From an uncultured Candidatus Saccharibacteria bacterium (GTDB lineage Bacteria; Patescibacteriota; Minisyncoccia; Minisyncoccales; CSSED10-335): a stretch of 28,348 nt of DNA. The stretch lies in the NCBI GenBank assembly GCA_964452925.1, contig CAYVNL010000065.1:1-28348 (forward strand). Reading direction: 5' to 3'. Every line of letters starts with the position of its first letter. Within the stretch, counting starts at the first letter, position 1. The notes under the pieces are model-generated. The model made no database searches. It was not told the origin of the DNA and saw nothing but the letters and a program-made list of their open reading frames with translations. Shown piece by piece: positions 18,072-21,736 of the stretch. Position numbers and translations under genes: made by a program.

Positions 18072-18506
18072 ATGTCAAAACAGATAAAAAATATCTTAAA
18101 AATACAGATAGCTGCAGGTAAAGCAACTCCAGCACCACCGGTTGGGCCATCTTTGGCTCCTCATGGGATCAATATTGGTGAGTTTTGCCAAAGGTTTAAC
18201 GATCTAACCAAAGAAAAAGATGGGTTCACTATTCCTGTTAAAGTTACTATCTTTGAGGATAGGACATATGAATTAGAAATAAAAAACCCTCCAGCTTCAG
18301 AGCTTTTAAAAAAGGCAGCTGGAGTAGATAAGGGGGCAGGTAAACCAAACAAAGATCAAGTTGGTAGAATTACTAGAAATCAATTAAAAGAAGTAACTGA
18401 AAAGAAGATAGCTGATCTAAACACTGACAATATAGAGATGGCAATGAAAATCATAGAAGGAACGGCCAAGAATATGGGTATTAAAATAGAGGATAGTGAA
18501 AAATAA
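18072..18506 (+). CDS. rplK: 50S ribosomal protein L11
   Basis: AGKATPAPPVGP; FCQRFN; IPVKVTIFEDRT; PPASELLKKAAG; IEGTAKNMG. Confidence 0.98.
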   Translation: MSKQIKNILKIQIAAGKATPAPPVGPSLAPHGINIGEFCQRFNDLTKEKDGFTIPVKVTIFEDRTYELEIKNPPASELLKKAAGVDKGAGKPNKDQVGRITRNQLKEVTEKKIADLNTDNIEMAMKIIEGTAKNMGIKIEDSEK

Positions 18507-19014
18507 AAAAAACAGAAATAAAAGAATTTCGTGGGACGACGCCTTCATGGGCTTAGCTTTGATAATTTCAGAAAGAACTTCTTGTAAATTTTATGCAGTA
18601 GGTGTTGTCGCTATAGATAAAAATAAAAGAATAATTTCTCTTGGTTATAATGGATCAAGCGAAGGAGATGATCATTGTATTGATGTTGGGTGCGCTAAGG
18701 TTGATGGAGTGAATGGTGTTTATAAGCGTTGCCGGGGAATTCATGCAGAGATTAATTCAATAATAAATTCTAGTGACACTACTCGTTTAAAGGGTGCAAC
18801 GATATATACCACCCTTTTTCCTTGCTATGACTGCATGAAAGCACTTAACAATGTTGGTATAAGTGAAATTGTTTATATGGAAGAATATCAAAGAATTAAA
18901 ATTGGAGGAAAAGGTAAAGAAGAAGAAACAGAATCAATTGAATTAGCAAGAAAAAGAAAAATTAAAATTAGAAAATATAATTTAAAAGAAATAGAAATTA
19001 ATATTAAAAGATGA
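18496..19014 (+). CDS. dCMP deaminase (ComEB/DCTD family); GTG start overlapping rplK
   Basis: RISWDDAFM; SLGYNG; HAEINSI; TLFPCYDCMK (zinc motifs HAE and PCxxC intact). Confidence 0.88.
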   Translation: MKNKKNRNKRISWDDAFMGLALIISERTSCKFYAVGVVAIDKNKRIISLGYNGSSEGDDHCIDVGCAKVDGVNGVYKRCRGIHAEINSIINSSDTTRLKGATIYTTLFPCYDCMKALNNVGISEIVYMEEYQRIKIGGKGKEEETESIELARKRKIKIRKYNLKEIEINIKR

Positions 19015-19559
19015 TATTAGGAATAAAAAAAATACTTCGTTTAGTTAAAAAAAATAAGTTAGTTGAAGGTTTGTGTAATAGAGAATTGAATAATCCTGAA
19101 GGTTCAGGATTTGATTTAAGATTGGGTGAAGTTTATAAAATTGAAGGAAAAGGTTTTTTGGGCGTTGAAAATAGAAGCACTCCAAAATCTATATTAATCG
19201 CAAGAAACGAACCAGATAAAAAAGAAATAGACAATCATTTCATATTTCAACCTAATAAATATTATTTAATAAAAACAATCGAAAAAGTTAACTTACCATT
19301 AAATGTTTCGGGTATAGTTTTTCCTAGAACAACGCTTTTTAGGTCAGGAATATCATTTTTAAATGGTATAGTTCAGCCAGGATATTCTGGTGAGCTTAGT
19401 TTTGGAGTTATAAACATGAGTAACGAACCATTGAAAATATCTTTTGGTGCACGAGTTGCTCATATAACATTTCATAAAATATCTGGTAGAGGTAGTCATT
19501 ATAGAGGACAATGGCAAGGAGGAAGAGTTACGACAAAAGGATCTGAAAAGCAAGTTTAA
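19011..19559 (+). CDS. Trimeric dUTPase/dCTP-deaminase-fold protein with non-canonical catalytic motifs
   Basis: GFDLRL; PRTTLFRSG; [11 protein letters not shown]; GARVAHITF; YRGQWQGG. Confidence 0.8.
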
Positions 19560-19560
19560 T

Positions 19561-20550
19561 ATGAATAATAAAGAACAACAATATTTAAATATACTAAAAG
19601 ATATATTAGATAATGGCTTTGATAAGGAAATATTCCTAACGCCAGAAGTTAAAAATCAGTACCTGAAAGAAGAAAGAGAAATTCCCTATATTAGATCTGT
19701 TTTTGGTCGCCAAATAAGATTTGATTTATCTGAGGGGTTTCCATTACTAACAACAAAAAAAGTTTTTTTTAGGGGTATACTCCATGAACTTTTATGGTTT
19801 TTAAGTGGTGATTCTAATATAAAATATTTAGTTGATAACGATGTTCATATATGGGATGAATGGGCATGGAAAAGATACCATAAGCATTGTATTTTAAATT
19901 GTCCAGAAAAAGACGTTACACAAAAAGAATTTATATCAAAAATAAAAGAATTACCAGCAAAAGATAGCTTTGTTAAAGAATGGGGAGATCTAATATACTG
20001 TTATGGTCGTATGTGGAGGCGTTGGCCCGCAAGTGATAGTAGGGAAATCGATCAACTATCGTGGGTCATTGAGGGACTTAAAAACAAGCCATTTCGTAAG
20101 TCTTATGTTGTTTCGGGTTGGAATCCAGATTTTATATATTCAATGGCTTCAGAGAAAAACAAAAATGAAATACCACCCTTTTGTCACACATTGTTTCAAT
20201 TTACGGTTACGGACAAGCTTAATCTTGGAATGTATCAAAGAAGCGCAGATATGTTTTTAGGTGTACCATTCAATATAGCAAGCTATTCTCTCCTATTGTT
20301 AATGGTTGCTCAAGTAACAGGACTAGAGCCAGGCGAATTTGTTCATACATTTGGAGATGCTCATATATATTCAGATCACTTAATTCAGGTAAAAGAACAA
20401 CTATCAAGGGATCCCAAAGAATTTCCTGTAATAGAAATTAACAAGGGAATCAAAGACATCGATTTATTTAAGTTTGAAGATTTTAATTTAAAGAACTATA
20501 ATTATCATCCTCAAATAAAGGCCCCAATAACTAATGTAGGTGGATTTTAA
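19561..20550 (+). CDS. thyA: Thymidylate synthase ThyA, divergent
   Basis: [15 protein letters not shown]; ELLWFL; IWDEW; WNP; PFCH; [18 protein letters not shown]; GDAHIY. Confidence 0.93.
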
Positions 20551-21042
20551 ATGAAAATATCAATAATTGCCGCAATGGCTAAAAATAGGGTAATAGGCGT
20601 TGGTAATTCGTTGCCTTGGAATTTAAAAGAAGACATGGATTACTTTAAAAAGATAACTTTAAACAAAACTGTTATAATGGGTCAAAAGACTTTTGAATCT
20701 ATTGGCAAACCATTGCCAAAAAGAAAAAATATTATTCTTACAAAAGAAAAAGATTATAGTCCAGGTGGTTGTTTTACGGCAAAATCAATAGAAGATTCTT
20801 TGAAAACGATTAACCCAGAAGAAGAAGTTATGATTATTGGTGGCGCCTCTGTTTATAAGCAATTTTTACCACTAGCAGACAAAATGTACTTAACAATTAT
20901 AGATAAAGATTTTGATGGAGATGTTTTTTTTCCAGATTTTGACTATAATGAATGGAAAGAGGTTTCAAGGGTTGATAAAGAAAACAAGAACCTTAACTTG
21001 AAGTATAGTTTTATAATTTTAAAAAAAATAAAAATCTGCTGA
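20551..21042 (+). CDS. folA: Dihydrofolate reductase
   Basis: IAAMAKNRVIG..NSLPWNLKEDMDYFK; VIMGQKTFESIGKPLPKR; IIGGASVY; GDVFFP. Confidence 0.97.
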   Translation: MKISIIAAMAKNRVIGVGNSLPWNLKEDMDYFKKITLNKTVIMGQKTFESIGKPLPKRKNIILTKEKDYSPGGCFTAKSIEDSLKTINPEEEVMIIGGASVYKQFLPLADKMYLTIIDKDFDGDVFFPDFDYNEWKEVSRVDKENKNLNLKYSFIILKKIKIC

Positions 21043-21073: not shown

Positions 21074-21736
21074 ATGAACAAGATTGCAAAAGTTATAGAT
21101 CACACAGATATTAGGTCAGAAGCTACAATTAAGGATATTAAAAAAAGATGTAATGAAGCTAAAAAATATTCTTTTCATGGGGTTTGTGTTAACCCTAAGT
21201 TTACATCTCTCGTTAGTAGAGAGCTAAAAGGAACCAATGTTAAAACAGTTGTATTAATAGATCCTCCAATGGGTCTTTCAAGTCATAAAGATAGGTTGAT
21301 TGCTTGCAAGAAAGCTAAAAAAGATGGAGCGGATGAGTTAGACATAGTTCTTAACATAATAGATGTAAAGTATGATCGCTATGACAAGGTTTTAAAAGAC
21401 CTAAAACCTTTATGCTCTATACTTCCAACTAAAGTAATTATAGGTTCTGGATTTCTTACAGACGAAGAAATTAAAAAAGTTTCAGTTATTGTTAAAAAAT
21501 CAGGAGCTTTTTGCATTAAAACAGCTACAACAAAAGATCCTTTAGAAAATAGAGAAATGAAAGAAAAAGTATGGCATCTTAAACTAATGAAAGAATATGC
21601 ACCAGGATTAGTAGTTAAGGCTTCTGGTAAGATAAAAACAATAAGTGACATTAAAAGATGCATAAAAGCTGGTGCTGGAATTGTAGGCACTAGTTCTGGG
21701 GTTCAAATTATGAAAGAGATTTTATCTAATAAATGA
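21074..21736 (+). CDS. deoC: Deoxyribose-phosphate aldolase-like class I aldolase, divergent
   Basis: IDHT; VCV; GADELDIV; KVII; IKT; VKASG; GTSSG. Confidence 0.85.
   Translation: MNKIAKVIDHTDIRSEATIKDIKKRCNEAKKYSFHGVCVNPKFTSLVSRELKGTNVKTVVLIDPPMGLSSHKDRLIACKKAKKDGADELDIVLNIIDVKYDRYDKVLKDLKPLCSILPTKVIIGSGFLTDEEIKKVSVIVKKSGAFCIKTATTKDPLENREMKEKVWHLKLMKEYAPGLVVKASGKIKTISDIKRCIKAGAGIVGTSSGVQIMKEILSNK

Follow-up and report, generated by a model that had tools for sequence, protein, structure and literature searches.

A probable housekeeping thymidylate synthase with remodelled phosphate-binding and site-closing elements in a lineage of Patescibacteria and DPANN archaea

The thyA gene described here lies in a window of 28,348 nucleotides, which is the whole stretch of DNA that was analysed. 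It is very probably the housekeeping thymidylate synthase (EC 2.1.1.45) of its organism, converting dUMP to dTMP with a remodelled phosphate grip and lid. Judging by its genomic context, from which activity is read, it is almost certainly the only thymidylate synthase of the cell, and a working one. Few enzymes are as conserved or as well studied as thymidylate synthase, whose four phosphate arginines and C-terminal latch are textbook features. In the studied enzymes the phosphate arginines and the C-terminal carboxylate matter for ligand binding and closure, and the R21 loop and the C-terminus are the elements that close the site.

No published description of this variant in Patescibacteria, CPR or DPANN was found in the literature on thymidylate synthase. 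Newly recognised here are the GG-aromatic tail and the Cys-loop insert as common hallmarks, three subtypes with reciprocal basic residues, a DPANN membership that includes a DHFR-SHMT neighbour, gene fusions, and a DCD-like partner that is not exclusive to the variant.

Family, fold and changed elements

The gene is the following.

19561–20550, + strand: thyA, encoding a 329-aa 'type B' variant thymidylate synthase (open reading frame, PF00303, TIGR03284, AF2 and Foldseek)

The protein matches PF00303 (Thymidylat_synt) over its full length (E 4.5e-94, 314.9 bits, cut-off 24.3), and not the PF02511 (Thy1) family of ThyX, for which its own genome has no match. It also scores above the curated cut-off in three thymidylate synthase models of NCBIfam, among them TIGR03284 with 349.9 bits (cut-off 108.35) and NF002496 with 341.9 bits (cut-off 325). 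In a PDB sequence comparison the best solved relatives are the ThyA of Elizabethkingia, Brucella and Lactobacillus casei, with E values of 8e-86 to 1e-80. The AF2 monomer model, for which a 144-sequence alignment was the input, has a pLDDT of 94.8 and a pTM of 0.93. A Foldseek search with this model returned L. casei TS first (E 6.6e-36, TM 0.84/0.87), and the TMt to E. coli TS is 0.95. The canonical long-form enzymes of these two species (4TMS/1LCA and 2TSC) are 43–48% identical to the query, with TM values of 0.84–0.95, and the L. casei enzyme has the same small-domain insert after I-W-D-E-W. The automatic label 'thymidylate synthase', which is also the database name of the homologues, is probably correct.

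Residues were numbered against P0126, a 264-aa canonical ThyA with its key residues at E. coli positions, and PDB alignments served as a second check. Two segments with retained residues are as follows.

20233–20274, + strand: Y-Q-R227-S228-A-D230...N238, with the sole retained phosphate arginine and the Ser, Asp and uracil-specifying Asn (invariant in alignment A1 and in 290 of 292 variants)
20353–20370, + strand: G-D-A-H268-I-Y270, equivalent to H207/Y209, the contacts to the deoxyribose 3'-OH (invariant in the alignments)

The kept residues of the query, with E. coli equivalents in brackets, are E76 (E58), W98 (W80), W101 (W83), Y148 (Y94), C208 (C146), H209 (H147), R227-S228-D230 (R166, S167, D169), N238 (N177) and H268/Y270 (H207/Y209). 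The folate and pyrimidine contacts K48, I79, W80, W83, L172, G173, F176, N177 and D169 are unchanged. Among tail variants as a whole, the set E58, W80, Y94, C146, H147, R166, S167, D169, N177, H207 and Y209 is complete in 290 of 292 sequences. The query and canonical ThyA have every catalytic, uracil, deoxyribose and folate-contact residue in common, and also the linkage of thyA to folA. The changed elements, with one candidate substitute residue, are listed next.

19627–19692, + strand: residues 23–44, replacing the DRTGTG (R21) phosphate loop and 14 residues longer (alignments)
19693–19695, + strand: R45 (position 27 in E. coli), which may stand in for R21 (role proposed from the conservation pattern)
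19990–20007, + strand: L144-I-Y-C-Y148-G, replacing L-G-P-V-Y-G, with Y148 (Y94) kept (alignment)
20089–20103, + strand: P177-F-R179-K180-S181, replacing P-D-S-R126-R127 (alignment)
20125–20187, + strand: the catalytic loop with its 8-residue insert, ending in C208-H209 (alignment and AF2)
20533–20547, + strand: the C-terminal tail N325-V-G-G-F329, 4 residues past the canonical end (alignment)

The clade consensus of the first segment is F-F-T-P-E-V..Y..[KR]G..P-P-x-I, and the AF2 model gives this region a short strand (20–23) and a new helix (28–36). In pairwise HMMER alignments R39 of the query falls under R21. Its column is variable, however, with E in 54%, R in 12% and Q in 12% of 144 clade members, and this rules out R39 as a retained R21. 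Position 27, which is R45 in the query, carries a basic residue in 98% of type B, 93% of type A and only 43% of canonical sequences, and is Tyr in type C, where R21 is kept. Ile replaces G91 in type B alone, in 89% of its sequences, and G-P-V is retained in type A. At the canonical arginine pair the query has S125R, R126K and R127S, so that the new Arg stands one residue earlier than the pair. Positions 125 and 126 are R and K in 100% of types A and B, followed by Ser in type B and by His in type A.

From N134 to C146 the query has 21 residues, compared with 13 in the canonical enzyme. This Cys loop is 20–21 residues long in 290 of 292 tail variants and 13 residues long in 61 of 104 other sequences. 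Within it, Y193 and M195 are 100% conserved and the AF2 model has a pLDDT of 81–85; type B has an additional Phe between the Pro and the catalytic Cys. In the tail, G327 and G328 are 100% conserved and the last residue is aromatic, and 118 of 120 type B proteins stop exactly there. The tail is a coil in the AF2 model, with a pLDDT of about 74.

Positions conserved in at least 80% of canonical ThyA were scanned for replacement in the variants. Only R21, G23, T26, S125, R126, R127 and L143 (to I or V) are replaced, apart from columns specific to type B (G91, Q97, V264) or to type A (Q151, F152). On this comparison the remodelling appears to be confined to three of the four phosphate arginines and the site-closing elements (R21 loop and C-terminus). 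The original prediction had listed the loss of DRTGTG, the change of R126/R127 to PFRKS and of LGPVYG to LIYCYG, an altered Cys loop and an NVGGF end, and all are present in the comparison with P0126 and the PDB sequences. It had also named the catalytic Cys, E58, W80, R166-S167-D169, N177 and H207/Y209 equivalents as kept, and the alignments bear this out.

The protein has HMM scores above the cut-offs, the TS fold, the catalytic residues and the Asn at 177 of the ThyA family. It lacks the four-arginine clamp, the D-R-T-G-T-G loop and a C-terminus at position 264. Because only R166 of the clamp is kept, the gene is filed here as a variant and not as a canonical ThyA member. In canonical ThyA the chain ends in A-V/I at position 264, whereas in the query a 4-residue G-G-F extension displaces the terminal carboxylate, and proteins of types A and C continue for 6–30 residues past the GG motif; in the query the R21 loop is replaced, R126/R127 have become K/S, and 8 residues are inserted before the catalytic Cys. 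The nearest protein with classical motifs is P0123 (Parcubacteria, 302 aa, 57% identity). Unlike the query, it has D-R-T-G, S-R-R and an ...A-P-I-A-V end, and its Cys-loop insert is different and shorter.

The best structural matches in Foldseek include several L. casei mutants, namely R23I (1BP0), R178T (1BO8), R179T/A/E/K (1BO7/1TSV/1TSX/1TSY) and the double mutants 1BP6/1BPJ, and also the C-terminal deletion mutant 1TDA. These engineered changes are at the positions of the natural ones and are their laboratory counterparts. Substitutions of R179 and R23 in L. casei TS reportedly leave an active enzyme. The mutants are single or double changes in a canonical scaffold, whereas the query lineage has fixed a joint change of three arginines, the R21 loop, the Cys loop and the tail.

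A lineage with three subtypes

The best 120 database matches are 70–80% identical to the query and about 330 aa long, and those that are named come from Moranbacteria, Falkowbacteria, Parcubacteria and other Patescibacteria. Almost without exception they have the same loop, P-[FY]-R-K-S, the Cys-loop insert and an A-N-[IV]-G-G-[FY] end. The recurrence of these motifs across 120 close homologues indicates that the changes are a lineage trait and not chance. A wider set with the same hallmarks was found at 41–69% identity (representatives at 50% identity), in which one cluster is named Nanoarchaeia. A search from that cluster led to about 120 proteins under the names Nanoarchaeota, Pacearchaeota, 'archaeon', Parcubacteria or Paceibacteria. 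By these shared motifs the query belongs to a large ThyA lineage that spans Patescibacteria (CPR) and DPANN archaea.

The sequences were tabulated as 292 tail variants and 104 others, 396 in all. Both D-R-[TS]-G and an Arg at the R21 column are absent from all 292 tail variants, and 282 of them have R-K-[SH] at 125–127. The traits of the lineage are a Cys-loop insert of 7–8 residues and a (V/I)-G-G-aromatic tail. Three subtypes were distinguished.

Type A: hosts are DPANN and some Parcubacteria; R21 loop short and degenerate, without R21; R-K-H at 125–127; tail G-G-F followed by 6–30 residues, mostly charged
Type B (that of the query): hosts are Patescibacteria; an extra loop insert of 12–14 residues, without R21; R-K-S at 125–127; tail ending exactly at G-G-[FY] in 118 of 120; additional changes G91I, Q97M, Phe before the Cys, and V264N
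Type C: hosts are Microgenomates (Woyke-, Davies-, Levy- and Roizmanbacteria); D-R21 kept in 119 of 120; A-K/R-N at 125–127; tail G-G-[LYF] with further residues

In a quick tree from all well-filled columns, the tail variants are on one side of a branch with an SH-aLRT of 99, with two apparent exceptions, which are a truncated sequence and one that ends in G-G-S. In a careful tree with the trait columns masked, the tail variants split into several weakly supported groups among the canonical ThyAs of CPR. With these columns masked, the AU test did not reject monophyly of the tail variants (p 0.188). A single origin is consistent with these data and is suggested, though unproven, by the three complex indels that the variants have in common.

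Within the query's own class, relatives mostly have canonical ThyA or ThyX, and the closest type B sequences (72–74%) are in other families. In type A, DPANN and Parcubacteria proteins are about 70% identical. This pattern of identity across families and domains points to horizontal spread of the variant thyA among ultra-small organisms. The only tblastn matches in 50,697 phage records were canonical ThyAs, at no more than 46% identity, and none of them aligned over the tail. On this result a phage origin, or a phage-type modifying enzyme, was rejected.

Some related sequences differ in other ways. In several otherwise canonical ThyAs (P0130, P0134, P0158, P0173, P0177 and others; 12 of 104 sequences) a different insert recurs in the Cys loop, which then has about 26 residues and reads ...L-P-D-E-S-x-S-P-x-E-N-V-x-x-G-K-Q-A-L-P-P-C. 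With this different insert at the same site, the loop is an insertion hot spot. Short tails of the form ...S-V-G-L, S-V-G-I or N-V-G are present in P0160, P0165, P0215, P0227, P0145 and P0153, canonical proteins that keep D-R-T-G and S-R-R, so a short Gly tail is possible without loss of the arginines. Two full-length type C ThyAs (PF00303), P0446 and P0447, are labelled 'NUDIX domain protein [uncultured bacterium]' in nr, probably a misannotation inherited from the adjacent gene.

Gene neighbourhood and the only thymidylate synthase

Between 18072 and 23193 on the + strand is a housekeeping string of rplK, dCMP deaminase, DCD-like gene, thyA, folA, deoC and gatB, with overlaps or gaps of 0–31 nt. 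The thyA gene starts 1 nt past the stop of the gene upstream, and the ATG of folA immediately follows the thyA stop (TAA). No terminator-like sites were found inside the gene string around thyA. The neighbours closest to thyA are as follows.

18496–19014, + strand: dCMP deaminase, dCMP to dUMP (PF00383, E 2.4e-20)
19011–19559, + strand: dCTP-deaminase/dUTPase-fold (DCD-like) gene, likely for dUMP supply (PF22769, E 4.5e-23)
20551–21042, + strand: folA, encoding DHFR (PF00186, E 1e-59)
21074–21736, + strand: deoC, deoxyribose-phosphate aldolase, in the same gene string (TIGR00126, 149.8 bits, cut-off 117)

The linkage to folA is general. In 26 of 27 other variant loci a folA homologue is within 1.5 kb of thyA, mostly directly downstream on the same strand; it is divergent in L017. 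CPR folA genes complement E. coli delta-folA (PMC11974145).

Two fusions were found. The 524-aa P0093 has an N-terminal dCMP deaminase joined to a type B ThyA, and the 520-aa P0349 has an N-terminal DCD-like domain joined to a type A ThyA. On a 258-kb Nanoarchaeota contig, a type A thyA is divergent beside a 579-aa DHFR-SHMT fusion (PF00186 and PF00464; L035:3108–4847, - strand), and nearby are a dNK/thymidylate-kinase gene, a DCD-like gene, a Fic gene and two Nudix genes.

Of the 29 variant genomes, 14 have a close homologue of the DCD-like protein, whereas none of the sampled genomes with canonical ThyA does. Such homologues also occur beside ThyX (G065, G096 and G047). The presence in only 14 of 29 genomes and the copies adjacent to ThyX led us to reject the DCD-like neighbour as a variant-specific partner. 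It is a general partner in dUMP supply and not an explanation of the tail. Where dCTP deaminases (4xjc) read V-D-P-G...T-L-E-L, the DCD-like neighbour has a different segment, in which Gln and Gly stand for their usual Asp and Glu. Among PDB entries it matches 9ln0 and 8y1w best ('dCTP deaminase', 156 aa); these, too, are without that Glu and carry Met in its place.

The genome of the query (571 kb in 98 contigs, 94.8% complete) has one ThyA and encodes SHMT and thymidylate kinase (Tmk); ThyX and a credible thymidine kinase were not found in it. In a sample of 300 genomes of the phylum, ThyA is present in 100 and ThyX in 123. The tail variant is present in 29. It was aligned in 27 of these (loci L006–L030, L033 and L034), and in G068 and G111 its presence is taken from matches that reach residue 328; G154 (locus L020), an unpublished genome, adds one count to the tallies of variant genomes, and no conclusion depends on it by itself. 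None of the 29 variant-bearing genomes has a ThyX or a second ThyA.

Many Patescibacteria genomes have two Thy1 (ThyX) domain matches in one open frame of 460–800 aa, for example at G208:C3:166221–167540, G013:C11:53574–54875 and G271:C1:703090–704388. This suggests that these are tandem-duplicated, fused ThyX genes.

Substrate, phosphate site and rival readings

The folA linkage, the status of the enzyme as the only one of its kind and the fusion to dCMP deaminase together argue for dUMP as the substrate, for the release of dihydrofolate and for this protein as the sole route to dTMP. In the proposed mechanism, 5,10-methylene-tetrahydrofolate would be the methyl donor for dUMP, and the dihydrofolate released would be recycled by the DHFR encoded immediately downstream. 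The core that carries the chemistry is untouched, and the phosphate-holding and site-closing parts have been rebuilt together. The inter-subunit pair R126'/R127' has become R125'/K126', and R21 has been lost with its glycine-rich loop. R227 (R166), S228, the partner subunit's R179'/K180' and probably R45 would hold the phosphate. The canonical latch of R21 and the C-terminal carboxylate, which closes the ternary complex, would be replaced by the new loop together with the insert and the tail.

Has the phosphate site been abandoned, or has it been rebuilt? The basic residues around it are R21, R126', R127' and R166 in canonical ThyA, R21, K/R126' and R166 in type C, and R125', K126' and R166 in types A and B. 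Types A and B have lost R21 and gained R125, and position 27 is basic in them and Tyr in type C, which keeps R21. Such a reciprocal pattern would be expected if about three positive groups still bind a phosphate. This compensation between subtypes is the best in-silico argument that the site was rebuilt and not abandoned, as we infer from sequence.

A change of substrate or chemistry, to another uracil nucleotide (e.g., dUDP/dUTP or UMP) or to hydroxymethylation, would account for the replacement of three of the four phosphate arginines and for a surrounding loop, insert and tail that are new and strongly conserved. The DCD-fold gene just upstream, sometimes fused to the variant, could be read in the same way. 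However, the variant is the sole thymidylate synthase in 29 of 29 sampled variant genomes, the dCMP deaminase fusion delivers dUMP, and thymidylate kinase is present. N177, H207/Y209 at the deoxyribose and all folate contacts are kept, and the compensating basic residues are as expected for binding of a phosphate monoester. Phage dCMP/dUMP hydroxymethylases such as T4 gp42 share the ThyA fold and the same Cys nucleophile. The dCMP hydroxymethylases have Asp at 177 and are not known to release dihydrofolate or to be linked to folA, whereas the query has Asn (N238) and is linked to folA; this linkage implies dihydrofolate release, which is not expected of a hydroxymethylase. We regard this reading as very unlikely. 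The original prediction was of a uracil C5 one-carbon transferase of a distinct clade with altered phosphate recognition, worth testing for non-dUMP substrates or antifolate resistance. The retained N177 equivalent, the clade and the changed phosphate-binding residues in the sequence stand. The sole-enzyme status, the position between dUMP-supplying genes and folA, and the intact contacts favour ordinary dTMP synthesis, and these comparisons lend no support to an altered substrate or response to drugs.

Alternatively, the chemistry may be ordinary and the insert and tail mainly docking surfaces in a dTMP-synthesis complex, where they would bind the DCD-like protein, dCMP deaminase or DHFR. The tightly packed genes, the fusions with dCMP deaminase and the DCD-like protein, and the long charged tails past the GG-aromatic motif in types A and C are in keeping with such a complex. 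It is weakened by the patchy distribution of the DCD-like protein, which also accompanies ThyX, and by the changed positions themselves, which, going by TS structures, would fall on the classical phosphate and closure elements and not on free surface. Docking as the main role is thus rather unlikely, though the most probable of these alternatives. The loss of residues once held to be invariant might even suggest an inactive or regulatory ThyA-like protein. With the full catalytic set in 290 of 292 sequences, 70–80% identity across CPR classes, and no other thymidylate synthase or thymidine kinase found in the genome, a pseudoenzyme is scarcely credible. The housekeeping thymidylate synthase with a remodelled phosphate grip and lid remains the best explanation.

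It is improbable, but would be of consequence, that the rebuilt clamp and lid give this CPR/DPANN lineage a ligand behaviour unlike that of all studied thymidylate synthases. Such behaviour may include a preference for nucleotide or folate forms suited to scavenged cofactors, another closure mechanism, or a low affinity for classical active-site inhibitors. The function itself is very probably ordinary, and the interest is mainly for enzymologists and for the evolution of CPR and DPANN. Hundreds of CPR/DPANN sequences at 70–80% identity lack three of the arginines and have a different lid, yet the enzyme is apparently the sole source of dTMP in its hosts. If confirmed, this would be a natural experiment on how much of the phosphate clamp is required, a new structural solution for closure of the active site, and a marker with which to trace gene exchange between bacteria and archaea of ultra-small size.
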